From NCBI RefSeq assembly GCF_000020025.1, contig NC_010628.1, positions 7,800,001 through 7,832,000 on the forward strand: a stretch of DNA of 32,000 nt, given 5' to 3'. Below the pieces are notes generated by a model that saw only the letters and a program-made list of their open reading frames with translations, did no database searches and had not been told where the DNA came from. How positions within the stretch are numbered: position 1 is the stretch's first letter; each line of letters begins with the position of its first letter. The position numbers were made by a program, and so were the translations under genes. Origin of the DNA: Nostoc punctiforme PCC 73102 (GTDB lineage Bacteria > Cyanobacteriota > Cyanobacteriia > Cyanobacteriales > Nostocaceae). Below are positions 2 to 32,000 of this stretch, piece after piece.

Positions 2-505
2 GCTACACGCTTGCGCGAACGAGGTTACAGTGAAGCGGCATTTGAAATTTTGCAAGCTGGAGATCATTCAGATTTTCAGCGATCTGTTAGGGCAGATTAC
101 TTTCGTGATTTAATTCCGGTTTATACTTTTGCCACACTTCATGCTATTCAAGCAGAAGAGCGCTTACAATCTGGTTTCTGCATTTATTTTTTAGTATCGG
201 ATGGAAAAGTTAGCAATATTAACTGGACTGAACGCGCTCGTCAGCATTTGATTAATCCTGATTCAGACTCTCGTATTCATCCTTGCTTACTAGCTGTACT
301 ACGGGGCTTGCATTTTATTGAAGCTGAACGAGGTGTGTACAAAAGTCAACTTAGCCCAGTACTAGATCCATTTAGTTGGATATCGCCTAATACAGTTGAG
401 GAGGCTGGTGAAGTGAAAGTTCTCCACTCCCGCCGCAAAGGACAGGTATTACTTAATTATCGCGCTGTACTCACCTACGTTTCTCAAGTTCTGCACAGGA
501 AGTAA
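2..505 (+). CDS. Hypothetical protein, probably 5'-truncated by the window edge; first member of a coupled pair with the giant helicase-like ORF
   Basis: The frame is open from nt 2, with no stop before the listed TTG at 11. The stop TAA (503-505) overlaps the ATG (505-507) of the next ORF. I recognised no family motif. Confidence 0.5.
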   Translation, partial: ATRLRERGYSEAAFEILQAGDHSDFQRSVRADYFRDLIPVYTFATLHAIQAEERLQSGFCIYFLVSDGKVSNINWTERARQHLINPDSDSRIHPCLLAVLRGLHFIEAERGVYKSQLSPVLDPFSWISPNTVEEAGEVKVLHSRRKGQVLLNYRAVLTYVSQVLHRK

Positions 506-3500: not shown

Positions 3501-4461
3501 GACTTTGCTGGTAATGCTGCGCTCTACAATTCATACTCGCATTAAAGGTGATGCAGGACTTAATAAAAATAGAATTGCATTTGTCCCAGTTGGCTCTGTT
3601 GGAGATGAAGAATTATTGCGTTTGATGTCTGATGATTTATTAGATTTATTGCGTGAAGCCAAAATTTTTATCAGCGATAGTCACCCTCAAGAAGCAAAAG
3701 CAATTGTGAAAAAAGCCGAGCAGTTAACTGCAAACATCTTTAAGCATTTTGACTTGAGAGGTCAATCATTAGAGAAAAATGCCAAATCTTATGCAAATTA
3801 TCAAACTTTACAAGCTTTGGTTAAAGCTGTTTCTAGAATTCAGAGTTCTTTATTGCCATCTTTAGATAGTGATGCGCTAGAGATACCTGATAGTCTAACT
3901 TGTATAGGCCCTTTCTGGATAGAAGATTGGAGTGATCGCCAAACTGAAGAAATATTTAGCTTTGAAGCATGGAAAGCTGATATTAAACAAAATAGCAGTC
4001 GTCTTTTAGGACTATTAAAAGAAATTGCCGAAAGCAAGAAGTTCAAATTTCCCTCAAAACTCAAACGCCCTGCCAACGAACTATATAAGTTATTGAGTCG
4101 GGAACAAGAAGGATTTGTTATTGAATCTTCCACACGTCAAGCATTGAAAACTAAAAATATAGTTGTAGGTTTACCCCTCGACTATCCCCATTTCTGGAAT
4201 GAGCAATCAGAAGATGATACCCGCCAACAAGTATTAGAAGATCCCCAAGCTTGGAGAAGTGCGCTAGGACGTTCTCTAACTCCTCAAGGCTTAATCATAC
4301 CTGTAGTACCTCACTATCGAACATTTCCTTGGGTAGCTGTGGCAGGTAGGCGGATTTTTACACAATTAGAAACAGTTTTTAGCGATCGCTACTTTATGGC
4401 ATCCAGTGAATTAAATCTTCTTAATACAATATTGCTTGAAGATGAAGCAGATAACAAATAG
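505..4461 (+). CDS. Large SF2 helicase-like P-loop NTPase (1318 aa) with unassigned N-terminal (about 450 aa) and C-terminal (about 360 aa) regions
   Basis: Motifs are in canonical order. Motif I / Walker A is GNPGIGKTT (nt 1930-1956). Motif Ia-like is FFYLSPRVV. Motif II is VVMVDELAG with D691-E692 (nt 2575-2580). Motif III-like is LILADASLS. Motif V-like is LMTSSGARGVSFP (nt 3232-3267). Motif VI-like is QLIYRGRG (nt 3334-3357). It is a single uninterrupted 3.96-kb ORF. Confidence 0.8.
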   Translation: MESSFLQQASIWGQIFEIAVKRGVLQQLIHRNLLLNDHPVFQLWQSHKNADVSHQLVKAFKITDPNHKEWVETMLRHLLVLGYGLGWTTMRECLHHSQIKQPKLEAIWCPLTLPGQQMQRDEEKEETAKAFQETFNIPGKPDENLVNRGQPARADFILWLSNEFSSHRNTDKDEVIPSKDFKNVFSQPNDLKHKKIENLILCLEFSYNAPIKFADFKNEAPHTEEISRYARYMESRGVFSRVCAEVEGEEFSLSKRLESFLSAFSGQDKPLFKLCQSSSYTERLIHVLRKCKRLEGSCHARAIAVTSNGIESLAAQFWGVESEPDTRAKLMKSLGQAYCKAKHSDDDVPLDLDAEILLVFKKLLGGLPSAFKEQAKSLAEKPPLGQYSHFLFHENVTDFYNPMGEISKDEAIASIEDHNALHEFFGSDPVTQIANFVNQINPNKETIPLRQVHEAAVFVGLSAAQVGKINVLALEGNPGIGKTTAVIKFLKQQSQGFLFFYLSPRVVINRDVTDKLARENEQPTGILTITSNRNLIDAVPEWYKKQVQQNNFPPYSIDSAVVVDGIEKLIRPLGSIFFLTPEQELDIDCNIVGSTRFKRRLNERDYSIESLYSPGVLGTIAKSARKLLEANPQVNQLVMTAAIQGYRTLNDQSTTVNAFNNLFAKKADTKAGKNERSAFAARIPTIVVMVDELAGDGAGAPFVRKVAEWLEQQFIKPFDTNRSPFKIVLILADASLSNEVVLDSFLNSGDRAPDKVLISQSRGEAAFRVTGTHTKIGPKKHPTLHVMTNSYPASKLTIDYSIRLSPIKPGQNSDGREQTIRQAIREKSEEESLTNAYLEIKDGLHKGVEQLIFFAQDKAFLRQLQEKLTTGKEALLKRGEVEVLDQSVSPDQRLKLVKPPRRDEVRVFLMTSSGARGVSFPKTDCIIAAIPRFNIEAALMEIAQLIYRGRGMYTNPETGMEVSGDNKDRRLVMLINDFIIEREDIDAKRLWLRQSSDLLTLLVMLRSTIHTRIKGDAGLNKNRIAFVPVGSVGDEELLRLMSDDLLDLLREAKIFISDSHPQEAKAIVKKAEQLTANIFKHFDLRGQSLEKNAKSYANYQTLQALVKAVSRIQSSLLPSLDSDALEIPDSLTCIGPFWIEDWSDRQTEEIFSFEAWKADIKQNSSRLLGLLKEIAESKKFKFPSKLKRPANELYKLLSREQEGFVIESSTRQALKTKNIVVGLPLDYPHFWNEQSEDDTRQQVLEDPQAWRSALGRSLTPQGLIIPVVPHYRTFPWVAVAGRRIFTQLETVFSDRYFMASSELNLLNTILLEDEADNK

Positions 4462-8264: not shown

Positions 8265-9242
8265 ATGAAAATCTGTATTGTTGGCGCAGGTGCAATCGGT
8301 GGATATTTAGGGGCAAAACTGGCACTGGCAGGTGAAGCAGTGACGCTAATTGCACGTGGTTCCCATTTAGAGGCGATTCAAAAAAATGGGCTGAAGTTGC
8401 TCATGGCAGACGGTTCTAGCCAAATTGCTACTCCGTTGGCAACTAGTAATATTCAGGAAGCGGGGCCACAAGATGTAGTAATTCTAACTGTAAAGGCTCA
8501 CAGTGTGCCTGCGATCGCACCCTTTCTCCCTGCACTATACGATTCTCACACAATGGTGGTGACAGCCCAAAATGGCGTTCCTTGGTGGTACTTTCGTCAA
8601 CATGGCAGTGAGTATGAAGGTACGCGGATTCAATCTGTCGATCCAGATGGGATTATTGAAGCTAGTATCGGTGCTGAACGTGTTATTGGTTGTGTGGTTT
8701 ATCCGGCAACTGAGATAGTTGAACCAGGTGTAATTAAGCATATTGAAGGCGATCGCTTTACTCTCGGTGAAATCGATGGTAGTAAAACAGAACGCATCCA
8801 ATTATTAGCACAGACTTTAAAACACGCAGGATTCAAAGCACCAATCCGCAATCAGATTCGCACGGAAATTTGGATTAAGTTGTGGGGGAATGTGGCGTTT
8901 AATCCCATCAGTGCTTTAACTGGTGCGACTTTAGAGGATATTTGCCGCTATCCCCTTACGCGTGAACTAGCGCGGCTTATGATGAGTGAAACTCAAGCGA
9001 TCGCAGAAAATTTAGGTATAAAGTTTGGCATTACTTTAGAACAGCGAATTAATGGGGCAGAAAACGTTGGTGCCCATAAAACCTCGATGTTACAAGATAT
9101 TGAAGCCGCACGCGCTACGGAGATAGACGCTATTGTTGGCGCGGTGGCAGAATTGGGAAAACTGACTCAAATTCCCACGCCTTATATTGATGCTATTTAT
9201 GCCAGCGTTAAGTTGCTAGAGGCGACTAAAGTGGGAATTTGA
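8265..9242 (+). CDS. panE: 2-dehydropantoate 2-reductase (ketopantoate reductase)
   Basis: N-terminal Rossmann motif KICIVGAGAIGGYLG. ApbA/PanE-type length, with a C-terminal block (KTSMLQDIEA...TEIDAI) typical of the family. Confidence 0.8.
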   Translation: MKICIVGAGAIGGYLGAKLALAGEAVTLIARGSHLEAIQKNGLKLLMADGSSQIATPLATSNIQEAGPQDVVILTVKAHSVPAIAPFLPALYDSHTMVVTAQNGVPWWYFRQHGSEYEGTRIQSVDPDGIIEASIGAERVIGCVVYPATEIVEPGVIKHIEGDRFTLGEIDGSKTERIQLLAQTLKHAGFKAPIRNQIRTEIWIKLWGNVAFNPISALTGATLEDICRYPLTRELARLMMSETQAIAENLGIKFGITLEQRINGAENVGAHKTSMLQDIEAARATEIDAIVGAVAELGKLTQIPTPYIDAIYASVKLLEATKVGI

Positions 9243-11843: not shown

Positions 11844-13394
11844 CTACTTTCTCAACCGAAAACGCACCGGCATTCTATCAGGCGGATAAATCAAAAGGTT
11901 CTGCTGTAACTGTTCCAGAGATGAGCGACCGTTGACCAACTCCCAGTCAAAGTAGTAAACCAGTAGTGCCAGCATCATCGTTCCTTCCAGCATTGACAAA
12001 TGCTCTCCCAAGCAACGATGAGAACCTGAGCCAAAGTCTATCATTGGCAGTTGACTATTTTCCTTACCCTTCTCTAACCAACGCTCTGGCAAAAATTCAT
12101 CGGGATGAGAATATACTTCTGGATCTCGTCCAGCAGCAAGCATTGACCAGTATATTTTTGTGCCACGAGGAATAACCGTACCCTCAATAACAGTGTCACG
12201 TTGAGCCTCCAATGAAGTCGAGCCAGAGGCGACGGAATAAAGGCGCAAGGTTTCCTTGAGAATAGCGCGGATGTAATTCAATTCCTTGAGGCTTTCTCCA
12301 TTAATAGTGCCTTGACTTTCCCAAACTTGGTCAACAACGGCCTGTGCCTGATGAAAAACTCTTGGATTTAAAGCCAACTCTCCTATTGCAAAAGATAAAG
12401 TATGGGCCGTGGTATCAGTACCAGCGATTAAAAGTTCAATAACTTCTGCTACTAGTGTTTCCCGATTGTATTTTGGTTCTTTGGCAGCTATTTTCACCAA
12501 CATTGATTCTTGGAACAAAGGACTTACCTGTGTTAAATCCGTTTGATTTTGTTCTCTCATCTGTAAAGCTAAGTCTACACGGGGAGTAATAAACTCCTCT
12601 AAATATCGCCTTGCTGCCCAATAATCTCGTGAGTTCTTAGTTGGCAGATACTTCATCCATATCTTCTCACCAGTAGCTACCCGTAGGAACCGATAGCCTA
12701 CAATAGACATCGCCTCGTACACCTTGAGAACATCAAGGGGTTGTCCTTCATTAGTAGCAATGTTTTTATCCACAGGAATGCCCAGTACAAGACAGGAAAT
12801 CACCCTCATTGTTAGTTCTACAAACAGAGGATCTACCTGAACTTCTGGTGAGGCAACTGACTGAATTTTTTCGATTATTTGCTCGCAAGCTTGGTTAATA
12901 ATTTCCACATATTTAGAGAGACCGCTAGAACTGAATTCCGGGTTCCAAGCCTTGCGTCTGTACTGCCACTCACTTCCGTTTTGACCTAAAAGAATGGGCC
13001 CACCAATGTCGTTCCAAGCTTTGCTAGCTCGCTGTGACCTAATTAAGCTACCGTCTCTCATCCCATTAACAATGGTGTCTTCGATAACTTTTGGCTTACT
13101 CAAAACGAGAACTGGAAAGCCAGTCCAGTAAACATACATTGGGCCTAGCTGCTGGCTCCAATCAAACAATAATTGAAAGAATTTCTTCTCTTTGACTGCT
13201 GCTAATACTTGAGGAATATTTCCTAATAGCCAGTGTCTCTTAGGAGAGGGAAAGGACTGTAGAGATTTGTAAGTGTTCTTTTGTTTCCACCACCGCCAAC
13301 CAAATATTCCCGCTGTGCTAGTAATGCCTAAAGCTGTAACTAAATATGGAAATGAATCAGAAAAAGTAATTTGAGCAGCAATCTGTTGGAACAT
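11844..13394 (-). CDS. Cytochrome P450 with an N-terminal hydrophobic anchor
   Basis: Heme-thiolate loop FGSGSHRCLGEHLS, I-helix LIAGTDTTAH, K-helix ETLRL. The N-terminus has a hydrophobic stretch (YLVTALGITSTAGIFGW). ATG 13394 is preferred over the listed TTG 13415. Confidence 0.85.
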   Translation of the reverse strand: MFQQIAAQITFSDSFPYLVTALGITSTAGIFGWRWWKQKNTYKSLQSFPSPKRHWLLGNIPQVLAAVKEKKFFQLLFDWSQQLGPMYVYWTGFPVLVLSKPKVIEDTIVNGMRDGSLIRSQRASKAWNDIGGPILLGQNGSEWQYRRKAWNPEFSSSGLSKYVEIINQACEQIIEKIQSVASPEVQVDPLFVELTMRVISCLVLGIPVDKNIATNEGQPLDVLKVYEAMSIVGYRFLRVATGEKIWMKYLPTKNSRDYWAARRYLEEFITPRVDLALQMREQNQTDLTQVSPLFQESMLVKIAAKEPKYNRETLVAEVIELLIAGTDTTAHTLSFAIGELALNPRVFHQAQAVVDQVWESQGTINGESLKELNYIRAILKETLRLYSVASGSTSLEAQRDTVIEGTVIPRGTKIYWSMLAAGRDPEVYSHPDEFLPERWLEKGKENSQLPMIDFGSGSHRCLGEHLSMLEGTMMLALLVYYFDWELVNGRSSLEQLQQNLLIYPPDRMPVRFRLRK

Positions 13395-13577
13395 AAATCC
13401 GCCTTTGCTCAACAAAAACTTAGATTATTCAGATACTACCGTATTGTTTCCAGATTGGTTCAGCGCGGTTCTCTGTTGAGTGGTTTCTAAAGAAAATCTA
13501 AAGGTAGCAAATAGCGATCGCCTGAAAACAGGATAATGCAGCTGAACAGGTTAATTATTCCCATTCAACCTAGAATT

Positions 13578-14156
13578 ATGGCATCTCCACCGAAAATCCT
13601 CGCCTTTGCCGGCAGCACTCGGATTGATTCTTACAACAAAAAATTGGTAAAAATCGCGGCGGCTGGCGCTAAGGCAGCAGGCGCAGAAGTGACTTATATA
13701 GACCTCCGCGATTTGCCCCTACCTCTGTTTGATGAAGACTTGGAAGCTCAACAAGGACTACCTGCCAATGCCCGCACTTTTAAAGATTTGATGATTTCTC
13801 ATCAAGGATTGCTGATTGCTTCGCCGGAATATAACAGTTCACTCACAGCAGTTTTGAAGAATGCCATTGACTGGGCATCTCGTCCAGCCCCAAATGAAGC
13901 ACCGTTGGCTGCTTTTGCAGGGAAGGTTGCTAGTATTATGAGCGCTTCCCCAGGCGCTCTTGGTGGTTTACGGGGGTTGGTTCATTTGCGCTCTATTTTG
14001 GGAAACATCAAAGTTTTGGTACTTCCTGACCAGGTAGCCGTACCCAAAGCTTATGAAGCCTTTAATGTCGATGGCACGTTAAAAGATCCTAAACAGCAAC
14101 AATCTATTGAGCAGTTAGGGGATGGCTTAACAAAGATATTGCTGAAGCTCAATTAA
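13578..14156 (+). CDS. NAD(P)H-dependent FMN reductase family oxidoreductase
   Basis: KILAFAGSTRIDSYNKKL, SPEYNSS and LKNAIDWASR are typical of the FMN_red family. The ATG at 13578 (MASPPKIL) is preferred over the listed upstream start at 13536. Confidence 0.8.
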   Translation: MASPPKILAFAGSTRIDSYNKKLVKIAAAGAKAAGAEVTYIDLRDLPLPLFDEDLEAQQGLPANARTFKDLMISHQGLLIASPEYNSSLTAVLKNAIDWASRPAPNEAPLAAFAGKVASIMSASPGALGGLRGLVHLRSILGNIKVLVLPDQVAVPKAYEAFNVDGTLKDPKQQQSIEQLGDGLTKILLKLN

Positions 14157-22554: not shown

Positions 22555-24108
22555 ATGCCTCTGTCGCGCATAGTAACGCTAATTGTTGGTCTGATAGTCA
22601 TTTTGGGGCTAGCCCTATGGCTAATTGATTCCCTATCACGCCTTTATTGGCAATTGTCCTATTCGCCGTTGCTTGGCAATTTGCTGCTGTTGCTGCTGAT
22701 TGTTCTTATAGGAGCCTTGGTTGCGGCTTTTGTCTATTATGTATTGGTAATTCAAGCTGGGGAAAAGCGATCACGCCGCAACCCCAAGCGAGTAACTGCG
22801 GCGCAAATTCCTGCTGCTAAATCTGACGCTGCTTCTACAACTCTCCAAGCTGTGCGCCAACAGGTAGCGCAAATTCAAGATGAAGTCACACGTCAAGCTT
22901 TATTAAGTCGATCGCGGGAGATTGAAGCGAATTTAGCACGCGGTGAAATTCAAGTAGTGGTATTTGGTACGGGGAGTGCTGGCAAAACTTCCCTAGTTAA
23001 TGCAATTATGGGACGCATGGTAGGTCAAGTAGATGCACCGATGGGTACAACCCAGGTTGGAGAAACCTATTGTCTGCGGTTGAAGGGATTAGAACGCAAG
23101 ATTTTAATTACAGATACGCCAGGGATTTTAGAAGCAGGGGTGGCGGGAACAGAACGAGAACAAATGGCGCGAGAACTGGCAACAGAAGCAGATTTACTGT
23201 TATTTGTGGTGGATAATGACTTACGACGCTCAGAATATGAGCCGTTGCGCGGGTTAGCAGAAATTGGTAAGCGATCGCTCCTAGTTCTCAACAAAACCGA
23301 TTTATATACAGATGAAGATAAAGAATCCATCCTCGCTAGGTTGCGTCAACGGGTACGGGGATTTATTGCTACTAATGATGTGGTGGCGATCGCAGCTAAT
23401 CCCCAATCTGCACAACTAGAAACCGGCGAAACTTACCAGCCGGAACCAGATATTGTCCCTTTACTGCGACGCACGGCTGCTGTTTTACGCGCCGAAGGTG
23501 AAGATTTGGTGGCGGATAATATTCTTTTGCAATCTCTGCGATTGGGAGACGAGGCGCGAAAACTCATCGATGGTCAGCGTCGCCGTCAAGCTGACAAAAT
23601 CGTAGAACGATTCCAGTGGATTGGTGCCGGTGTAGTATCAGTTACGCCAATACCAGTGGTAGATTTATTAGCGACAGCAGCTGTTAATGCTCAAATGGTT
23701 GTGGAAATTGGCAGAGTCTACGGCTGTGAATTGAATATGGAACGGGGACGAGAGTTAGCTCTTTCTTTAGCGAAAACTATTGCTAGTTTGGGCATTGTCA
23801 AGGGAGCAATTCAATTATTATCTACAGCGTTGCAACTTAATGTTGCTACCTTTCTTATTGGTCGGGCGATTCAAGGTGTGACAGCAGCTTATTTAACGCG
23901 AATTGCTGGTAAAAGTTTTATTGAATATTTTCGTCACGATCAAGATTGGGGTGATGGGGGAATGACAGAAGTTGTGCAGAAACAGTTTCAAATTAATCGC
24001 CGAGATGAATTTATTAAAGCTTTTATTCAAGAAGCGATCGCGCGAGTGGTGAAGCCGTTACAAGATAAATCTGAAGTAATTGAACATGATGAAGAAGTCA
24101 ATAGTTAA
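22555..24108 (+). CDS. Membrane-anchored GTP-binding protein with a C-terminal DUF697-like domain
   Basis: Two N-terminal TM segments. G1 is GTGSAGKTS, G3 is DTPG, G4 is NKTD. The C-terminal hydrophobic region resembles DUF697/YcjF. Confidence 0.8.
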   Translation: MPLSRIVTLIVGLIVILGLALWLIDSLSRLYWQLSYSPLLGNLLLLLLIVLIGALVAAFVYYVLVIQAGEKRSRRNPKRVTAAQIPAAKSDAASTTLQAVRQQVAQIQDEVTRQALLSRSREIEANLARGEIQVVVFGTGSAGKTSLVNAIMGRMVGQVDAPMGTTQVGETYCLRLKGLERKILITDTPGILEAGVAGTEREQMARELATEADLLLFVVDNDLRRSEYEPLRGLAEIGKRSLLVLNKTDLYTDEDKESILARLRQRVRGFIATNDVVAIAANPQSAQLETGETYQPEPDIVPLLRRTAAVLRAEGEDLVADNILLQSLRLGDEARKLIDGQRRRQADKIVERFQWIGAGVVSVTPIPVVDLLATAAVNAQMVVEIGRVYGCELNMERGRELALSLAKTIASLGIVKGAIQLLSTALQLNVATFLIGRAIQGVTAAYLTRIAGKSFIEYFRHDQDWGDGGMTEVVQKQFQINRRDEFIKAFIQEAIARVVKPLQDKSEVIEHDEEVNS

Positions 24109-24397
24109 ATAATTCAAAATTCAAAAACAAATGCGCTTCCTGTTATTAGGTGTGCAAAAGTCAAGGTAAAAGAAGAATCGATCAAACAGCAACTCTTTAA
24201 AACGGATATTTAAAGTGTATTAGGTCCATTTTTTTGCTGTTGTAATTTAGCCAAAAGATGGTGAAATCACATAATGCATCATTAGATTTTCTATTTTCCC
24301 AAGTTGTTTAGGTAAGATTCTTTTTCACAAATAATTGATATAGTTAAGTAAAACTTATGCAAATCAGTCAATTTATTTGAATTCTTTATAAAGTATG

Positions 24398-24423
24398 TTA
24401 ACTGTCTTAACTGTCTTAACTGT
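24398..24423. repeat. Tandem 9-mer (TTAACTGTC, about 2.9 copies) in the AT-rich region upstream of the A-T-R gene
   Basis: Read directly: TTAACTGTC TTAACTGTC TTAACTGT. Confidence 0.8.
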
Positions 24424-24660
24424 TCTTGCATTCCTATTAAAAGTCTGAGACGTTAAGAAAGATAAAGTGTAGTGTTATGCATTCCAATCAATTTGGAGAG
24501 CTTAAACAATTACAACGACAGTAACAACTAGTAAACTAAAGTCTACTTACAAGCCGCAGCAAGCATCTGGAACGCTTAAGCAAGTCTTTGTTAGTTTCGC
24601 TTGCTGCAATTAGGTATGAAAAGTTTTGTCCTATAAATCTTTGCTCAAAAAATAAATTCT

Positions 24661-27600
24661 ATGATTTTTGGCAGTCTATACCCTGACATTCCTATCCCTA
24701 AACAGCCACTGACAGAATTTGTCTTGCAACGAGCAATAAATTTAGCCGACAAACCAGCCCTTATTGAAGGACTAACTAACAGGATAATAACATATAAACA
24801 ACTAGTCGAGTCAATTCGTAAAATTGCTTGTAGCTTGGCAGCGCGTGGCTTCTCCAAGGGAGATGTTTTAGCTATTTACAGCCCTAATATTCCGGAATAT
24901 GCGATCGCTTTTCATGCCGTAGCAACTTTAGGTGGGATTATCACCACAGTCAACCCATCCTACACCGCAGAAGAACTGGCATATCAACTCAATGATGCTG
25001 GAGCAAAACATCTCATCACCATCCCAGACCTTGTAGGGCAAGCATTAGAAGCGATTGGTCACTCAAAAGTAGAGGAAGTATTCGTATTTGGTGAAGCAGC
25101 TGGAGCTACCCGATTTTCTGTACTTTTAGAAGGTGAAGGAGAAATACCAAAAGTACAAATCAATCCACAAGAAGATTTAGTAGCCTTGCTCTACTCTAGT
25201 GGTACTACTGGTATGCCTAAAGGTGTAATGCACACCCACCATTCATTTGTGGCCAACTTTCACCAATTCCAAAACTGCGAGCCAGTCAGCAAGGCTGATG
25301 CAATTATCGGAGTTTTACCTTTTTTTCACGCCTATGGCCTGGTCATGCTGAATTACAGCCTGGCTTGCGGTGCTACTGTTGTGACGATGCCGCGCTTTGA
25401 TTTAGAAGCCTTTGTGAGCCTGATTGAAAAGCATAAAATCACCCGTATTCACATCGTTCCGCCAATTTTGCTGGCATTAGCAAAGCAGCCAATAGTAGAT
25501 AAATACGATCTTTCGAGCTTGCGAGTGCTGACTTCTGGAGCAGCACCACTTAGCCATCAATTGATCGAAGAGTGCGAACAGCGTCTGACTAATTGCGTTG
25601 TTAAGCAAGCATACGGAACGACAGAAACCTTTGTGACCACCTACACTCCAGATGAACGTGACAAAATCAAGCCTGGTTCAGTAGGTCAATGTCTCCCTCA
25701 TGTTGAATGTCAAATCGTAAATGTCGATACCCAACAACCATTAGGTTTTAATCAATCAGGAGAGTTGTGGGTACGCGGGCCGCAGATCATGAAAGGCTAT
25801 TTGAATAATCCCGACGCAACTGCCAGCACAATCAATCGAGATGGTTGGTATCACACTGGTGATATTGTCTATATTGACGAAGACGACTACTTTTACATAG
25901 TCGATCGCATCAAAGAATTGATTAAGTGTAATGGCTACTCCATAGCACCGGCAGAATTAGAAGCAGTATTGTTGAGTCATCCGGCTGTCGCTGATGCTTG
26001 TGTAGTCAAGAGTCCTCATCCTAGTAGTGGGGAAGTTCCCAAAGCTTTTGTCGTACTAAAAGCCGCTGCCACTGCACAGGAAATTATGGAGTTTGTCGCT
26101 GGTCAAGTTGCACCGCATAAAATGATCCGCAGACTTGAATTTGTGGACAAAATTCCCAAATCGCCTTCTGGCAAAATTTTGCGCCGCATATTGGCACAAC
26201 AAGAACTGACAAATATCAAAGCAGCATCCTCTGACGAGCAACCATTGGAGCAACGATTAGAATTTTTAGAACAGTTAGATGATGGTTCTTTGGGTCAACG
26301 TCAAGAACTATTAATTGCTTACATTCGAGAGCAATTTGTCAAAGTTTTAGGCATCAATACTTCTCAAAATCTGGATATAGAGAAGCCTTTGCATGAACTG
26401 AGGCTTGATTCTCTCATGAATATCGATTTGAAGAATCGTATTGATACTGAATTAGGGGTAGACATACCCATAGATATGTTGCTTGGTAACTCCAATATCA
26501 ACCAATTGGTAAATTTATTGCTTCAGCAACTAACAGCGAAAAACACAATTATCTCAAAAAAATCATCGGCTGAATTAGCAACAGATTTGAATTCAGAAGT
26601 TGTTTTAGACTCTACTATATTTCCTGAATACCCATCTGAGTCATTTGTAACTGAGCCTGCTGCTATTCTCTTAACTGGAGCTACAGGCTTTTTAGGAGCT
26701 TTTTTACTTCAAGAACTGCTGTTAAAAACCCAGGCGGATGTTTATTGTTTGGTACGTTCTACTGATGCTAGATCAGGGAAGATGAGGATTCAAAATAACT
26801 TAGAATCCTATGGAATTTGGCATGAAGATTTTGCTGAGAGAATTATTCCTATTTTAGGTGATTTATCTCAACTAATGTTAGGTTTGTCATTACAAGATTT
26901 TCAAAAAATGAGCAGCATCATTGATACGATCTATCACAACGCTGCTTGGATTAACTATGTTTATCCCTATTCAGCATTAAAGCCTACCAATATTTTAGGA
27001 ACTCAGGAAATATTGAGATTGGCGAGTCGTGTAAAAATCAAGCCTGTACATTATATTTCCACTATTGCTGTTTTTGAGTCACCTGCTTATTGGGGAAAGG
27101 TAGTAACTGAATCCGATCAACTCGATCATAGTGAGGGAATGAAACTTGCTTACTCCCAAAGTAAATGGGTGGCAGAAAAGTTAGTGATGTTAGCGAGTGA
27201 CAGAGGAATTCCAGTTTCAATTTATAGATCACCATTTATTTCTGGGCATAGTCAAACAGGCGCTTGGTATAAAGATGATGTGATTTGCCGCACCATCAAA
27301 GGCTGTATACAAATTGGGAGCATGACAGACATCACTGACACCTTAGATTTAGCCCCTGTGGATTACCTCAGCCAAAGTATTGTGTATTTATCACAGCAAA
27401 AAGATTCTCTTGGCAAGGCTTTTCACTTAAATAATCCTCAATCTATTTCTTGGCGAGAACTAACTGATTTTATCCGTTCTCTTGGCTATCAGATTGAGCA
27501 TATTGCTTATCACGATTGGCAAACACAACTAAATAATTCTGTCCGCTCTCAGGAAAATCCTTTGTATCATCTCTTGCCTTTTTATCAAAAGCATTATCAA

Positions 27601-27765
27601 CAATCAACCGATCCCAAAATTAGTTGTTTAGCAACACAAAATGCTCTTACAGTAAGTTCAATAAGGTGTCCTCCAGTGAATGAACAATTGCTCAATACCT
27701 ATTTTTCCTATTTTCTTCGTAGTGGTTGGTTGGGCGTGTCGCTACCCTCGAATAAATTGGCTTAA
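24661..27765 (+). CDS. NRPS-like carboxylate reductase: 4-coumarate-CoA-ligase-like adenylation domain, carrier domain and thioester reductase (A-T-R)
   Basis: The 4CL-like N-terminus is MIFGSLYPDIPIP. AMP-binding motifs are SSGTTGMPKG (nt 25195-25224), YGTTE, GWYHTGD and PKSPSGKILRR. The carrier Ser is in LRLDSLM (Ser584, nt 26410-26412). The reductase has LTGATGFLG (nt 26674-26697) and YSQSK. Confidence 0.9.
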   Translation: MIFGSLYPDIPIPKQPLTEFVLQRAINLADKPALIEGLTNRIITYKQLVESIRKIACSLAARGFSKGDVLAIYSPNIPEYAIAFHAVATLGGIITTVNPSYTAEELAYQLNDAGAKHLITIPDLVGQALEAIGHSKVEEVFVFGEAAGATRFSVLLEGEGEIPKVQINPQEDLVALLYSSGTTGMPKGVMHTHHSFVANFHQFQNCEPVSKADAIIGVLPFFHAYGLVMLNYSLACGATVVTMPRFDLEAFVSLIEKHKITRIHIVPPILLALAKQPIVDKYDLSSLRVLTSGAAPLSHQLIEECEQRLTNCVVKQAYGTTETFVTTYTPDERDKIKPGSVGQCLPHVECQIVNVDTQQPLGFNQSGELWVRGPQIMKGYLNNPDATASTINRDGWYHTGDIVYIDEDDYFYIVDRIKELIKCNGYSIAPAELEAVLLSHPAVADACVVKSPHPSSGEVPKAFVVLKAAATAQEIMEFVAGQVAPHKMIRRLEFVDKIPKSPSGKILRRILAQQELTNIKAASSDEQPLEQRLEFLEQLDDGSLGQRQELLIAYIREQFVKVLGINTSQNLDIEKPLHELRLDSLMNIDLKNRIDTELGVDIPIDMLLGNSNINQLVNLLLQQLTAKNTIISKKSSAELATDLNSEVVLDSTIFPEYPSESFVTEPAAILLTGATGFLGAFLLQELLLKTQADVYCLVRSTDARSGKMRIQNNLESYGIWHEDFAERIIPILGDLSQLMLGLSLQDFQKMSSIIDTIYHNAAWINYVYPYSALKPTNILGTQEILRLASRVKIKPVHYISTIAVFESPAYWGKVVTESDQLDHSEGMKLAYSQSKWVAEKLVMLASDRGIPVSIYRSPFISGHSQTGAWYKDDVICRTIKGCIQIGSMTDITDTLDLAPVDYLSQSIVYLSQQKDSLGKAFHLNNPQSISWRELTDFIRSLGYQIEHIAYHDWQTQLNNSVRSQENPLYHLLPFYQKHYQQSTDPKISCLATQNALTVSSIRCPPVNEQLLNTYFSYFLRSGWLGVSLPSNKLA

Positions 27766-27849
27766 CTGTTACCAATTAAGCAATTTTAATAGGATTAAAA
27801 ATTACGCTCAAATAAGCCCATTTTTAATTAGTATTTAGGACTAAAACTC

Positions 27850-28332
27850 ATGTCTGACATTAAAAAACTGGGTTCATCATGGATCATAAATTGGTTTTTT
27901 GGTTTTAACCAGATTCCTACAAACGAAGATAGCAGCATTTATATGAAATCTGTTTTAACTTGTGCTAAAGCAGATGGAGTTATCTCACCAGAAGAAAAGG
28001 ATTGGGCACTTGGATTCTGTGCATCTTGGGGAGTAGCAGACTGGGTGATCGAAGATCTAAAAACTTATGAAGCTGATGAAGCTCTAGAAGAAGTAATTGC
28101 TCGCTCTCCTCAAGTATCTATGGCACAAAGAGATATACTTCTGTCTGCAATTTGGGTTTCTGCTGCCGATGGAGAACTTCATGAAAAGGAAAAAGCAAAA
28201 ATTCGGAAAATGGCTACTATTTTAGGGATAAAAGAAGAAATAGTAGACCAGTTGGAGCAGCTACAACAAGAAGAAGCAGCACTACGACAGAAACGCCTTA
28301 ACCTCTTATATCCTCAGAAAAGCCCCTATTAA
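27850..28332 (+). CDS. TerB-like (tellurite-resistance TerB fold) small protein, paralog 1
   Basis: Two TerB-style repeats, CAKADGVISPEEKDW and VSAADGELHEKEKAKI. It is a paralog of 31209-31703. Confidence 0.65.
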   Translation: MSDIKKLGSSWIINWFFGFNQIPTNEDSSIYMKSVLTCAKADGVISPEEKDWALGFCASWGVADWVIEDLKTYEADEALEEVIARSPQVSMAQRDILLSAIWVSAADGELHEKEKAKIRKMATILGIKEEIVDQLEQLQQEEAALRQKRLNLLYPQKSPY

Positions 28333-28443
28333 TTAATCATCTGGCGTTGCTGATTGCAATATGAATATTGGTGTAGAGATGCTTCACAGAAGATTTGAAT
28401 ACCTGAATTCAGCAATGCCATTTTCTCTTGATTGAGAATTTTT

Positions 28444-29487
28444 ATGTTTCAAACTCAATTACAACATCCTACAAGTAAAGACGAAATGCAGACTACACAA
28501 ACATTAAAACAAATTATCGCTGGTGCTTGGATTACGCAAGGTATTTATGTAGTTGCTCAACTTGGTATTGCAGATTTACTTAAGGATGGTTCTAAAAGTT
28601 ACGATGAATTAGCAACAAAAACTGGTGTAGATGCCCGATCCCTCTACCGACTACTACGCGCCCTTGCCAGTGTTGGTATATTTGCTGAAGGTAATTCAGG
28701 CTACTTTGAGTTAACACCCGTTGCCGAAAGTTTGCAAAGCGATCGCACCGATTCCCTACGTGGTTATGCTATCAAGTCTGGTCAAGCCTGGGAATGGCAA
28801 CCTTGGGGACATCTACTTGAAAGTATCAAAACCGGAAAACCTGTATTCAAAAATATTTTCGGGATGGAGAGATTTGATTACCTAGCCACAGACCCTTCTG
28901 CATCTAAAATATACACCCAAGCTATAAGTAGTATTTCTGGCGAACAAGATGCAGCGATCGCAGCTGGTTATGACTTCTCATTCATCCACAACTTAGTTGA
29001 GGTTGGAGGTGGAAATGGTACTTTGATAGCCTCGATTCTCAAATCGAATTTGACAATGCAGGGGATTTTATTTGATTTACCCCATGTAGTTGCAGATGCC
29101 AAACCTGTGATTGAAGACCTGGAACTACAAGATCGTTGTCAACTAGTCGGTGGGAACTTCTTTGAATCAGTACCCACAAGTGGAGATGCTTACTTGCTAC
29201 GGTATATTATTCACGATTGGGATGATGAAAGAGCGATCGCCATCCTGAAAAATTGCTACCAAGCGATGCAGCCTGACGGCAGATTGCTGCTAGTCGAAAT
29301 GGTTATACCTCAAGGCAACGAACCATTCTTTGGCAAACTCCTCGACTTGCAGATGCTCGTGAATTATGGCGGCCGTGAACGGACTCAAGCTGAGTATCAA
29401 GTCCTATTAAAAACAGCAGGTTTCTCATTGACAAAAATTTATCCAGTAGCACCTCCAATCAGCATAATTGAGGCTATTCGCCTATGA
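28444..29487 (+). CDS. Class I SAM-dependent O-methyltransferase (COMT/Methyltransf_2 type with an N-terminal dimerisation domain)
   Basis: A winged-helix dimerisation region (GIADLL...LYRLLRALASVGIF), SAM motif LVEVGGGNG, DLPHVV, and a C-terminal GRERTQAEY. ATG 28444 is preferred over the listed TTG 28432. Confidence 0.85.
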   Translation: MFQTQLQHPTSKDEMQTTQTLKQIIAGAWITQGIYVVAQLGIADLLKDGSKSYDELATKTGVDARSLYRLLRALASVGIFAEGNSGYFELTPVAESLQSDRTDSLRGYAIKSGQAWEWQPWGHLLESIKTGKPVFKNIFGMERFDYLATDPSASKIYTQAISSISGEQDAAIAAGYDFSFIHNLVEVGGGNGTLIASILKSNLTMQGILFDLPHVVADAKPVIEDLELQDRCQLVGGNFFESVPTSGDAYLLRYIIHDWDDERAIAILKNCYQAMQPDGRLLLVEMVIPQGNEPFFGKLLDLQMLVNYGGRERTQAEYQVLLKTAGFSLTKIYPVAPPISIIEAIRL

Positions 29488-29600
29488 AACGGAACAGGGA
29501 ACGGGCAACAGACAACAGGAAAACAAGTCTCCGTTCCCGCCACCAAGAGGCTTGGTAAATCATTTTTTGACACAACACTCATAGTTTTAAGGTAAATACC

Positions 29601-30776
29601 ATGAAGCAAAATTTGATTGAAACTTTACTAGACATTTCAGAACAGGAAAAAGAGCGGCTTTTAGCAGCCATCCAAATTGATGCTATTACTGAAAGTCCAT
29701 ATCTAGAAAAGGAATCAACAGAATCACAAGAGTACAGACAATTTTTCCAATCACTCTTCCAAGAGATACTTCATTTTGAAGATAACGAGCAGCAATTACT
29801 TTTTGAAATAGCAAGATATGTGCGTCATAAGTATTTGGAAAATAAAGGAAATTTAAGAGGTGTGATTGAGATTACTAATGCTTGCGAAAGGAGTTGTAAT
29901 TATTGTCCAATGAGAATTGAAAATGAAGAATTAGGAGATCGTTACAATTTTTCTAGCGAAAAAATATTAGAAACCGCCATAGAAATCAAAGAAGCAAAAA
30001 TTCCCATTGTATTCATTCAAGCAGGTGAAATTAAAGCAACGACTAAAACCGTATCTAGAGCCATACCTAAAATTAGACAACTTTTTGAGAATAACGTCAT
30101 AATCCTTCTAAATCTTGGTGATAAACCTAAAGAAGATTACACAATACTCAAAGAAGCTGGCGCAAATCAATACATTATTAAATTTGAAACGAGCAATTGG
30201 AATTTACACAAACAAGCTAGAGGATACCTCTTATCCGATCGCCTCAATAGAATCGATGATCTATTAAGTTTAGGATATGAGGTGGGAAGCGGAACAATTG
30301 TCGGTTTAAAAGCAGTAAATGCCAATGGGAAAATCGAAATTGAACAAACTCCAAAGATGCTGGCGAACGATCTCCTACTTGCCATGAGGAAAAAAGTTCA
30401 TATGTGTAGTGCGTCTCCTTTTGTACCTGGTAAAGGTACTCCACTAGCTCAAATGAGTGCGGGCAACGCTAGTATGACTTTAAATTGGATGGCTTTAGCC
30501 AGAATTATGATGCCAAAAGTTATGATACCTAGTGTAAGTGCTCTTAATGTTTTATTAGGACAAGATGGTCAGTTAAAAGGACTGCAAGCAGGGGCAAATA
30601 CGATCACCGTGAATTTTACCCCTCCCAACTATCAAGACCAGTATGCTATTTACAGTAAACAAAAACGGTACAAAGTCAAATACGAATATGCTTTAGATAT
30701 TATGGAAAAAGCAGGTATCGAGCCAATTTTATTGCCTAACATGCCTAGCCGGAGTTTTTTACTCTCTCAAAATTAG
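29601..30776 (+). CDS. HydE/PylB-like radical SAM enzyme with a ~60-aa N-terminal extension
   Basis: CERSCNYC (CX3CX2C, nt 29883-29906). From memory it is collinear with Thermotoga HydE blocks: IEITNAC..C.YC, IQAGE, EAGANQYIIKFETSN, LGYEVGSGTIVGL, SPFVPGKGTPLA, ALARIMMP and GANTITVNFTP. Confidence 0.8.
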   Translation: MKQNLIETLLDISEQEKERLLAAIQIDAITESPYLEKESTESQEYRQFFQSLFQEILHFEDNEQQLLFEIARYVRHKYLENKGNLRGVIEITNACERSCNYCPMRIENEELGDRYNFSSEKILETAIEIKEAKIPIVFIQAGEIKATTKTVSRAIPKIRQLFENNVIILLNLGDKPKEDYTILKEAGANQYIIKFETSNWNLHKQARGYLLSDRLNRIDDLLSLGYEVGSGTIVGLKAVNANGKIEIEQTPKMLANDLLLAMRKKVHMCSASPFVPGKGTPLAQMSAGNASMTLNWMALARIMMPKVMIPSVSALNVLLGQDGQLKGLQAGANTITVNFTPPNYQDQYAIYSKQKRYKVKYEYALDIMEKAGIEPILLPNMPSRSFLLSQN

Positions 30777-30799
30777 AACTTCCCACTGCTTAAAGAGGA

Positions 30800-30904
30800 C
30801 TTACGCAACTGAGGGAGAACTGAATGCGGTGGTTCAAGTCTCCCGATCAAGCGCAGCAATTATTAGCAGCAAAATTAGCCCTGTTCTGTCACTTTTCGGA
30901 TTAA
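30800..30904 (+). pseudogene. IS6-family-like transposase C-terminal remnant
   Basis: It translates to RGLTQLREN*MRWFKSPDQAQQLLAAKLALFCHFSD*. This resembles the conserved IS6-type C-terminus (..RER.MRRFKS...AQRFLS.....NHF) with an in-frame stop. No upstream transposase body is present. Confidence 0.4.
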
Positions 30905-31208
30905 GCCAGTAGTAAATAAAACCTTTTACCCAGAACAATAAAATTTTTTAAATTGATTCATTGCACTAATTAGATTATTGAATCCAAGCAATAAATTGAG
31001 CAGTGAATTAAGTTATATTTCTCTTAATAAATTAGCATTTATTTATCATCAAAAATAGCTTTTTAAATTTAAAGGCTATTGTATTTGAATGCATTTTTGA
31101 ACATTGAAATAATACAATAAATAAGATTTTTTTAATGTTCAACTATTAGCTTTTTATGCAATGATTAAATTTGTAAATTACAAAATTAAGTAATTTTAGG
31201 AAACAGCA

Positions 31209-31703
31209 ATGACGACAGATATCAAAAAGCAAGAAGATTTAGGCATTTCGTGGTTGTTCCAAGAACAGTTTGGTTTTTCACAGATTCCATTAAACCAATC
31301 TTATGAAGCTTACTTTAAATCGCTGCTTGTTTGTGCTAATGGCGATGGCACATTAGCAGATGCAGAAAGAGATTGGGTGATTGGATATGCCTCTGCCTAC
31401 AACCGCGATCCTGCAATTATCGAAAAACTCAAAGTTTACAAGGCTGATGAAGATCTAGAGACACTATTTAGTGGAGATCCTTTAATTATTGAAACACGCC
31501 GTTCCCTACTCCTTGATGCAATACAAGCTTGTGCTGCTGACGGCGAATATAGCGAAAAAGAACGGGCGGTAGTACTCAAAGGAGCAAAGGCACTCAATAT
31601 TTCTGAAGACGAGTTGAAAAAGATTGAAGAAATCTATTTTGAGACAGTCAAACTCCGTGAAAAACGTCTAGCAGTCCTGTATCCCAAAGGTTTACCTTAC
31701 TAA
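31209..31703 (+). CDS. TerB-like small protein, paralog 2
   Basis: It has CANGDGTLADAERDW and CAADGEYSEKERAV repeats. It shares the N-terminal FGF.QIP and the C-terminal LR.KRL..LYP...PY with 27850-28332. Confidence 0.65.
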   Translation: MTTDIKKQEDLGISWLFQEQFGFSQIPLNQSYEAYFKSLLVCANGDGTLADAERDWVIGYASAYNRDPAIIEKLKVYKADEDLETLFSGDPLIIETRRSLLLDAIQACAADGEYSEKERAVVLKGAKALNISEDELKKIEEIYFETVKLREKRLAVLYPKGLPY

Positions 31704-31793
31704 ATCAACTCTTATCTTACAAGAGATAAATTTAGTAAGTTGATTGTATTTCTCTCGGTTAGTAGTCCGCTCTATTAATTCTTTCGGGCTACC

Positions 31794-31841
31794 ATATCCC
31801 CGACTTCTTCAAGAATTCGGGGATATAACCGCCTTTTTTTT
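31794..31841 (+). terminator. Candidate intrinsic terminator after the second TerB-like gene
   Basis: A perfect 10-bp stem, ATATCCCCGA (31794-31803) with TCGGGGATAT (31817-31826), has a 13-nt loop and is followed 7 nt later by T8 (31834-31841). Confidence 0.55.
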
Positions 31842-32000
31842 GATACTTCTACCCAAAACGATGAATATAGTAATTATCCTGGGTGAAATCATATTTTTAA
31901 TAGTCATTTTCTCGCTATTTAACTGACTCATTGGCATAATCTTCAAGCAGGTCACTAAAGTTTCTTGACTGCAAGGAAAAACTGCAATTATCAGCTTCCT

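Follow-up and report, generated by a model that had tools for sequence, protein, structure and literature searches.

A putative aryl-aldehyde cassette with a HydE-like radical SAM enzyme and TerB-like proteins in Nostoc punctiforme

Which compound would be made by a run of five genes that brings together an adenylating reductase, an O-methyltransferase, a HydE-like radical S-adenosylmethionine (SAM) enzyme and two TerB-like proteins? The run occupies positions 24661-31703 of a stretch of 32,000 nucleotides, hereafter called the window, which was assigned to the Nostoc punctiforme PCC 73102 chromosome by exact-sequence matches to the proteins ACC84612-ACC84616. The five-gene set is real, conserved and undescribed. 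No account of it was found in the open literature by locus tag, accession or concept, in line with a preliminary description, made from the sequence alone, in which the combination matched no described pathway. The most likely product of the locus is a methoxylated aromatic aldehyde, made from an aromatic acid. The overall reading is an aryl-aldehyde cassette with the radical SAM enzyme in acid supply and the TerB-like proteins as aldehyde binders, and we give it a rough probability of 0.5. Its core, in which an aryl acid is converted to an aryl aldehyde and the TerB-like proteins bind the latter, is considered probable.

The preliminary description had proposed five co-directional genes. An open reading frame (ORF) listing confirmed all five on the plus strand at the coordinates given there, with gaps of 84, 111 (counted from the ATG at 28444) and 113 nt between the first four, and Pfam and NCBIfam models upheld every family call. 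The genes are the following.

24661-27765, plus strand: putative aryl-acid reductase with adenylation, carrier and reductase domains (A-T-R), ACC84612, 1034 aa; assigned from domains, motifs and orthologue neighbours.
27850-28332, plus strand: TerB-like protein 1, ACC84613, 160 aa; PF05099, the protein of PDB entry 2ou3.
28444-29487, plus strand: class I O-methyltransferase (OMT) with dimerisation domain, ACC84614, 347 aa; PF00891 and PF08100.
29601-30776, plus strand: HydE-like radical SAM enzyme, ACC84615, 391 aa; PF04055 and CX3CX2C.
31209-31703, plus strand: TerB-like protein 2, ACC84616, 164 aa; borderline PF05099, paralogue of TerB-like protein 1.

The chemistry of the locus can be approached from its first enzyme. 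The A-T-R protein matches PF00501 (AMP-binding, 318 bits), PF00550 (PP-binding, 43.6 bits) and PF07993 (NAD_binding_4, 224 bits), and it passes the thioester reductase model TIGR01746 (331 bits, cut-off 213). It consists of an adenylation (A) domain similar to 4-coumarate ligase (4CL) at about residues 1-515, a carrier (T) domain with Ser584 in LDSL and a reductase (R) domain of the short-chain dehydrogenase/reductase (SDR) type with TGATGFLG and YSQSK. Across 28 orthologues, K505 (A10), S584, T672-G679 and Y831-K835 are invariant, as is the A3 motif SSGTTGxPKG. With three domains in one chain and intact motifs, the protein belongs to the carboxylate reductases resembling nonribosomal peptide synthetases (NRPS-like). 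Among solved structures, plant 4CLs (408 bits) come nearest to the A domain and MxaA (340 bits) to the R domain. In NCBIfam, the A domain scores best with subfamily models of long-chain fatty-acid CoA ligases (406 bits), under their cut-off of 476, and every other ligase match of the protein falls under its cut-off too.

Two groups of known enzymes serve for comparison. Carboxylic acid reductases (CARs; PDB 5msc and 5msp) and NRPS-like aryl-acid reductases share adenylation, a phosphopantetheine thioester and reductive release with A-T-R, as well as likely aromatic acid substrates, and the SDR-type R domain with TGxxGxxG and YxxxK is also found in CAR. In contrast to CAR, A-T-R has an A domain of the 4CL/luciferase type, which scores 408 bits to 4CL and about 179 bits to CAR structures. 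The protein reaches 267.8 bits for the CAR equivalog NF041592 (cut-off 1300), and its gene shares a cassette with genes for an OMT, a radical SAM enzyme and TerB-like proteins. The resemblance to 4CL (Nt4CL2, 5bsm; Pt4CL1, 3a9u) covers the full A domain (residues 2-512) at about 40% identity, and the pocket residues H223 and Y225 are conserved. Unlike 4CL, the A domain is fused to T and R domains, and the acceptor would be the carrier arm instead of CoA.

The substrate pocket is also different. Of the residues that we take to form the hydroxycinnamate pocket of Pt4CL1 (Y236, S240, K303, G306, G331, P337 and V338), only Y236 and G331 are kept. Ser240 is changed to Met, Lys303 to Thr, Gly306 to Ala and Gly336-Pro337-Val338 to Phe-Val-Thr (i.e., S240M, K303T, G306A, P337V and V338T), and the 4CL loop Gly-Pro-Val-Leu-Ala-Met is replaced by Phe-Val-Thr with a four-residue deletion. 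Since the A domain lacks the 4CL substrate code, a shorter benzoate-type acid is more likely to be its substrate than a cinnamate-type acid. Hence, of the aryl or cinnamoyl acid proposed earlier, the aryl part agrees with the 4CL score and with the neighbours of the orthologues, and the cinnamoyl part is the less likely one. In the predicted sequence of events, A-T-R would adenylate a benzoate-type aromatic acid via the 4CL-like A domain and load it as a thioester on its own carrier domain, and the R domain would free the product with NAD(P)H. Release as an aldehyde instead of an alcohol and the order of the steps are what we infer, as are the acid itself, the radical SAM reaction and the role of the cassette in the cell.

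Which acid is reduced may be judged from the company kept by the orthologues. Full-length A-T-R orthologues, 65-91% identical, occur in many Nostocales, and A-T-R is far more widespread than the radical SAM enzyme. In Scytonema sp. HK-05, the A-T-R gene (75% identical) is followed by a salicylate synthase gene (TIGR03494, 335 bits, cut-off 325) and preceded by a TerB-like 1 gene (81% identical), a 145-aa gene and a TerB-like 2 homologue. The metagenome locus L020 carries A-T-R (87%), OMT (84%), a cyanobacterial chorismate lyase (NF037993, 265 bits, cut-off 175) and TerB-like 2, and the lyase takes the exact slot of the radical SAM gene, between OMT and TerB-like 2. An Aphanocapsa metagenome-assembled genome (MAG) has two lyase-like genes before A-T-R and genes for DAHP synthase and a zinc-dependent alcohol dehydrogenase after it. 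On the chromosome of Nostoc sp. C117 (L032, 2654-14372), a phenylalanine ammonia-lyase (PAL)-type gene stands with an A-T-C protein, the A domain of which shares 63% identity with that of the window, with A-T-R (75%), a CCoAOMT-type methyltransferase, a P450 and an SDR; this locus looks like an undescribed phenylpropanoid-type pathway. The orthologues at 66-68% identity are solitary or adjoin an ApbA-type reductase. As the orthologues adjoin salicylate synthase, chorismate lyase, DAHP synthase or PAL, A-T-R is predicted to reduce aromatic acids that derive from chorismate or phenylalanine. The separate alcohol dehydrogenase or ApbA-type reductases beside some orthologues are consistent with the release of an aldehyde. 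Moreover, PMC12928648 cites p-hydroxybenzaldehyde as a compound of Nostoc commune (its reference 47), which is consistent with the cassettes of the lyase type.

The third gene would supply the methoxy group. The mechanical ORF begins at the TTG at 28432 (351 aa); the orthologues and ACC84614 use the ATG at 28444 (347 aa). The protein is a class I OMT, with matches to Methyltransf_2 (PF00891, 174 bits) and Dimerisation (PF08100, 45.6 bits), the SAM motif VEVGGGNG and a catalytic His in IIHDW. No NCBIfam equivalog is matched over its cut-off. Its nearest solved structures are methyltransferases of bacterial aromatic natural products, namely 6c5b (310 bits), followed by AlpH, CalO6 and MmcR. With these and DnrK it shares both Pfam domains, the SAM motif and the catalytic His, which bears out the phenol-type OMT suggested earlier, and it would methylate a phenolic hydroxyl. 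In the loci seen, the OMT is always paired with the radical SAM enzyme or the lyase. Private substitutions number 23 in the lyase-type OMT and 2-12 in each of the OMTs paired with the radical SAM enzyme. The OMT together with either partner looks like a two-gene module delivering a methoxy-aryl acid. Accordingly worded for the window, OMT and the radical SAM enzyme would form an acid module that is the counterpart of OMT and chorismate lyase in the sister locus.

The fourth gene encodes a member of the radical SAM superfamily (PF04055, 52.4 bits, cut-off 29.5) with the CX3CX2C motif at C95, C99 and C102 (CERSCNYC, residues 95-102). The best NCBIfam model is HydE (TIGR03956) at 185.6 bits, below its equivalog cut-off of 254.6; scores for ThiH, HydG and BATS (PF06968) are 33.5, 29.7 and 22.9 bits. 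Among solved structures, Thermotoga HydE comes first (160 bits over 316 residues), followed by PylB and BioB, and the alignment with these covers the TIM-barrel core and the BATS region. The differences from HydE lie in the score, in the genomic context, in a total of four Cys and in an N-terminal extension of about 45 aa that is also missing in the more distant relatives of the enzyme. Three of the four Cys belong to the SAM cluster motif, leaving no auxiliary cluster. No hydF, hydG or [FeFe]-hydrogenase gene was found in the window or the related loci, and the GTPase upstream of the cluster is an slr1306/DUF697 protein (HydF score 51 bits, cut-off 325). A true HydE is ruled out by score and context. 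Sulfur insertion of the BioB type was rejected as well, on the missing auxiliary-cluster Cys and a BioB (TIGR00433) score of 76.8 bits against a cut-off of 225.

Within the radical SAM family, identity falls from 87% in the clade directly to 49% or less. In four of the five contexts examined (L005, L007, L033 and L034: an aryl-polyene-like cluster with a halogenase, a Streptomyces cluster, S. viridifaciens pKVP1 and Bacillus mycoides p539), the relatives that are 43-48% identical have carrier proteins and stand-alone adenylating enzymes as neighbours. The Streptomyces cluster also contains two 2-oxoglutarate-dependent oxygenases and a TPMT-type methyltransferase. These relatives appear to be an uncharacterised subfamily in natural-product-like clusters of other phyla, and their neighbours support a link of the radical SAM enzyme to carrier-dependent acid activation.

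At which step the radical SAM enzyme acts may be read from the A-domain pocket. A neighbour-joining tree of 18 A-T-R proteins, computed without support values, nests two loci that lack the radical SAM gene (L018 and L020) among the proteins of the radical SAM type, to which they are 85-90% identical. Ten of the approximately 1030 columns separate the six proteins of the radical SAM type from the two nested ones, and four of these ten align to the 4CL substrate pocket (G293/A, F324/C, V325/L and T326/N). By a rough calculation, about 0.1 of the ten would be expected in the pocket by chance. In the simplest reading, the cassettes of the radical SAM type would process an acid other than 4-hydroxybenzoate, and the HydE-like enzyme would help to make or remodel this acid before adenylation, since a lyase holds its slot in the sister locus and the pocket residues switch with its presence. 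An action upstream of adenylation is nevertheless proposed tentatively, as somewhat short of an even chance. An analogy is offered by nosiheptide biosynthesis, where NosL makes 3-methyl-2-indolic acid from tryptophan and the ligase NosI loads the carrier. In NosL-NosI-NosJ, too, a radical SAM enzyme of the BATS group makes an aromatic acid and an ANL-type ligase loads it on a carrier, and the cassette may follow the same logic. In contrast, NosL belongs to the ThiH/HydG branch and not to the HydE branch, the nosiheptide system has no reductive release, and the clusters are not homologous. One prediction drawn from the pocket, that the lyase-type pocket always comes with an adjacent lyase, was dropped: it fails in L030, and L031 stops at the contig edge.

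The two remaining proteins would take care of the aldehyde. Both match TerB (PF05099, cut-off 24.4), TerB-like 1 with 38.1 bits and TerB-like 2 with a borderline 24.6 bits. They are paralogues with 43% identity, and TerB-like 2 scores 132 bits to 2ou3. TerB-like 1 is the 2ou3 protein itself; the two differ only in an N-terminal Gly and in a surface mutation of QQE to YYY. In a structural-genomics ligand survey, 2ou3 is listed with bound 1H-indole-3-carbaldehyde (PMC2954221, Table 2). The crystal thus holds an aromatic aldehyde, the product class of the adjacent reductase, and the aldehyde product is probably bound by the TerB-like proteins, which would sequester it, hand it on or serve in self-protection. 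This adds a ligand to the role in metabolite handling that had been suggested for the pair.

With 55 matches, all at least 72% identical, the family is small and confined to Nostocales, and its genes stay with A-T-R through rearrangements, across loci of the radical SAM, lyase and salicylate types. Klebsiella TerB (2jxu) and the N-terminal domain of DjlA share the PF05099 match and repeated D-G...E motifs with both proteins. Unlike TerB, TerB-like 1 reaches just 14 bits to 2jxu, has no ter operon around it, holds an aromatic aldehyde in its crystal and has aldehyde-forming enzymes as genomic partners. No ter genes (terA, C, D, E, Z) were found in the window or the related loci, and no tellurite-resistance system is recognised there.

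Carotenoid-cleavage oxygenases form aldehydes. On a plasmid of Nostoc sp. UHCC 0302 (NZ_CP151102; L035, 9001-12709), a TerB-like 1 homologue (79% identical) stands beside an ORF of 167 aa that has the C-terminal motif of a carotenoid oxygenase and is probably a pseudogene. Past this remnant, a 760-aa protein joins an N-terminal TerB domain (25.2 bits) to an RPE65/carotenoid cleavage oxygenase domain (490 bits). The neighbourhood of homologue and fusion independently supports an aldehyde-binding role. The gene context of a TerB-like gene in Streptomyces clavuligerus was uninformative. The idea that the TerB-like proteins are substrates resembling ribosomally synthesised and post-translationally modified peptides, via a C-terminal "PY", was abandoned because this end of the proteins varies (PL or extended in L015, L020 and L025). 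Likewise, PADLOC gave weak TerB-domain matches to the candidate defence system PDC-S48 (23 and 18 bits) and none for A-T-R, OMT or the radical SAM enzyme, and a defence system was not retained.

Do the five genes belong together? A-T-R, OMT and the radical SAM gene occur together and in the same order in at least six distinct genomic neighbourhoods with unrelated flanks. TerB-like genes recur in the loci, but their position or number varies (T1 and T2 are TerB-like 1 and 2).

Window and L008 (N. punctiforme; Nostoc sp. LEGE 12450): A-T-R, T1, OMT, radical SAM, T2.
L013 and L014 (Nostoc sp. ATCC 53789): A-T-R, OMT, radical SAM, T2.
L001 (5.9-Mb JGI contig): A-T-R, T1, OMT, radical SAM.
L003 (Scytonema sp. 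PRP1): A-T-R, OMT, radical SAM; no TerB-like gene.
L009-L012 and L019 (Nostocales MAG and soil metagenome contigs): A-T-R, OMT, radical SAM, T2, T1.

The ratio of nonsynonymous to synonymous substitution rates (dN/dS) is 0.05-0.42 over all five genes and at most 0.26 in 13 of 14 comparisons; all five are under purifying selection. The gene set exceeds chance, given its recurrence in other genomes with different flanks and these dN/dS values. Of the cluster status claimed earlier, the co-conserved trio stands; an invariant five-gene unit does not, the TerB-like genes being optional and mobile.

Several observations weigh against the overall reading. To our knowledge, no product or enzyme activity has been described for the cassette, and we know of no radical SAM enzyme of the HydE branch that makes an aromatic acid. 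The pocket argument depends on two loci of the clade that lack the radical SAM gene, on a tree without support values and on pocket positions taken from the 4CL literature. Two pocket variants exist within the radical SAM type (FVTTY and TMTTH), and one substrate per context is too simple. The A-T-R orthologues of L018 and L030 have the lyase-type pocket without a nearby lyase. Concerning the TerB-like proteins, their genes are absent from the Scytonema sp. PRP1 locus and from all A-T-R orthologues at 66-68% identity, the TerB score of the oxygenase fusion is borderline relative to the cut-off, and the 2ou3 ligand, which would have come from the E. coli host or the medium, may reflect a generic aromatic pocket.

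Alternative explanations mainly concern the step of the radical SAM enzyme and the nature of the acid. The same cassette could use this enzyme late, with the carrier-bound thioester, the free aldehyde or an aldehyde-cysteine thiazolidine as its substrate; in that case, primary metabolism would provide the acid, one other than 4-hydroxybenzoate, and the altered pocket would be accounted for. Thermotoga HydE takes thiazolidine carboxylates in vitro, and HydE is the closest solved relative (160 bits over 316 residues). The enzyme is encoded by the last biosynthetic gene of the run, and the carrier proteins beside its 43-48% relatives would fit tethered substrates. The preliminary description, too, had the product modified by radical chemistry; its methoxylated aromatic aldehyde was retained here, but not its late radical step. 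Indeed, a lyase fills exactly the radical SAM slot between OMT and TerB-like 2 in the sister locus, the OMT is accompanied by one or the other in all loci seen, and the switch of the pocket with the presence of the radical SAM gene is not required by late tailoring. We regard a late action as unlikely, though it is the strongest of the alternatives. The native product could also be an indole aldehyde, in which case the radical SAM enzyme would turn tryptophan into an indole carboxylic acid for A-T-R to reduce and the TerB-like proteins to bind. The crystal ligand is an indole aldehyde, the enzyme is the sole acid-supply gene present, and the BATS-domain group to which it belongs includes Tyr and Trp lyases (PF06968, ThiH and HydG scores as above). 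This enzyme is, however, far nearer to HydE, PylB and BioB than to ThiH or HydG, and the ligand would have come from E. coli. The OMT is phenol-type and 84% identical to the lyase-paired one, while an unsubstituted indole acid has no hydroxyl, and TerB-like 1 orthologues (81% identical) are also found at the salicylate-synthase locus. An indole product is therefore held to be improbable.

It is most improbable that A-T-R is a fatty-acid or amino-acid reductase giving a lipid aldehyde or alcohol or an amino aldehyde. The top NCBIfam models of the A domain are fatty-acid CoA ligases (406 bits, cut-off 476), and the architecture also fits MxcG and Lys2-type reductases; but all ligase matches remain under their cut-offs, the best solved relatives are 4CLs, the orthologues neighbour genes for salicylate synthase, chorismate lyase, DAHP synthase and PAL, and the OMT is of the aromatic natural-product type. 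The last alternative concerns the unity of the locus. If the TerB-like proteins were general stress proteins encoded nearby, only the trio of A-T-R, OMT and radical SAM enzyme, or fewer, would cooperate. The varying number and position of the TerB-like genes, their lack in Scytonema sp. PRP1, the 432-nt spacer with its own conserved upstream sequence before TerB-like 2 and the plasmid homologue with no A-T-R beside it all agree with this. Against it stand the persistence of these genes beside A-T-R through rearrangements in three cluster types, the small and Nostocales-restricted family, the aromatic aldehyde in the crystal and the plasmid copy, which again adjoins aldehyde-forming enzymes. 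We see little reason to prefer it.

The reading of the locus as an aryl-aldehyde cassette can be taken one step further, to two new functions in one cassette. The Nostocales TerB branch would be a dedicated aromatic-aldehyde binder, a carrier or sink for the reactive product that was fused once to an aldehyde-forming enzyme. The HydE-branch radical SAM enzyme would be a builder or remodeller of aromatic acids that replaces chorismate lyase as the acid supplier, and the relatives at 43-48% identity might share its reaction. This combined proposal is speculative, and we would expect it to fail more often than to hold.

The cluster lies in a genetically tractable model cyanobacterium, which makes these predictions directly testable. 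If they are true, Nostocales would possess a modular family of aryl-aldehyde cassettes, in which one reductase is served by interchangeable acid suppliers. The TerB-like family, with a structure solved since 2007 and no role assigned till now, would receive its first ligand-based function. Furthermore, several phyla would have biosynthetic clusters with members of an uncharacterised HydE-like branch of radical SAM enzymes. Dedicated binders for aromatic aldehydes, which are reactive and bioactive compounds, would be a new principle of self-protection or delivery. The reductase and its pocket variants would serve as useful biocatalysts.

The non-coding elements of the locus are as follows.

24109-24660, plus strand: AT-rich upstream intergenic region, putative promoter region; no Rfam match.
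30777-31208, plus strand: 432-nt AT-rich spacer ahead of TerB-like 2, with a conserved 3' part.
31786-31841, plus strand: hairpin with U8 resembling an intrinsic terminator at the 3' end of the cluster; from folding energy.

The AT-rich flanks and the terminator-like hairpin noted earlier were both recovered. GC content is 30% at 24001-24500, upstream of the A-T-R gene. The hairpin has a compound stem at 31786-31834 and U8 at 31834-31841, with a folding energy of -24.1 kcal/mol (z = -4.95), and is a good terminator candidate; a simple terminator scan missed it, its inner-loop rule being 3-8 nt. Rfam gave no match at E up to 1 within 24000-32000. In the spacer, the last 60 nt or so (31150-31208) ahead of the TerB-like 2 start are kept in all orthologous loci, those of the lyase type included, and the spacer is probably the promoter and 5' untranslated region (UTR) of this gene. 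Inside the conserved stretch lies the near-palindrome TTTGTAAATTACAAA (31170-31184), a possible operator or 5' UTR element. It was not accepted as an NtcA site, its spacing being mismatched to the NtcA consensus GTA-N8-TAC.

Some minor observations were made on the locus and its surroundings. TTAACTGTC occurs three times in tandem at about 24398-24424, upstream of A-T-R, and a related copy spans the A-T-R stop codon (27755-27770). The 113-nt gap between OMT and the radical SAM gene contains a weak terminator-like hairpin (29542-29566, 6-bp stem, T-rich tail), which could attenuate read-through. Divergence is mosaic: over 22555-31703 of the window, the comparison with L008 and L013 gives 99.4-99.8% identity for the flanking GTPase and 85%-99% for the cluster proteins. 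The synonymous distance (dS) to ATCC 53789 ranges from 0.07 for the radical SAM gene to 0.29 for A-T-R. The presence of TerB-like 1 also differs between close Nostoc strains, which, together with the mosaic, suggests recombination within the locus.

In Scytonema sp. PRP1, rearrangement or duplication has left a trace some 800 nt downstream of the radical SAM gene, a 46-aa fragment (L003, 11974-12111) with 61% identity to the central part of the OMT. Three Scytonema-type loci have a small gene of about 100-145 aa that matches no family directly upstream of A-T-R (L015, 9499-9936; L003, 5080-5445; L018, 9537-9857), and two of these three lack TerB-like genes. The 145-aa gene was not counted as part of the cluster, since it lacks a family match and has left no remnant in the window. 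Also set aside were the DUF697 GTPase upstream and the kinases downstream: they are common only to close Nostoc strains at the same chromosomal site and absent elsewhere. In Nostoc sp. LEGE 12450, the cluster is followed by an unrelated Ser/Thr kinase and then by sensor kinases. The ApbA-type reductase encoded at 8265-9242, 15 kb upstream in the window, is just 26% identical to the ApbA adjoining distant A-T-R orthologues and is a different gene. Elsewhere in the window, a 1318-aa ORF at 505-4461 has a weak match to Helicase_C (27 bits) as its sole family match, and a cytochrome P450 gene on the minus strand, which nothing ties to the cluster, is divergent from an NADPH-dependent FMN reductase gene at 11844-14156, about 10 kb upstream of the cluster.

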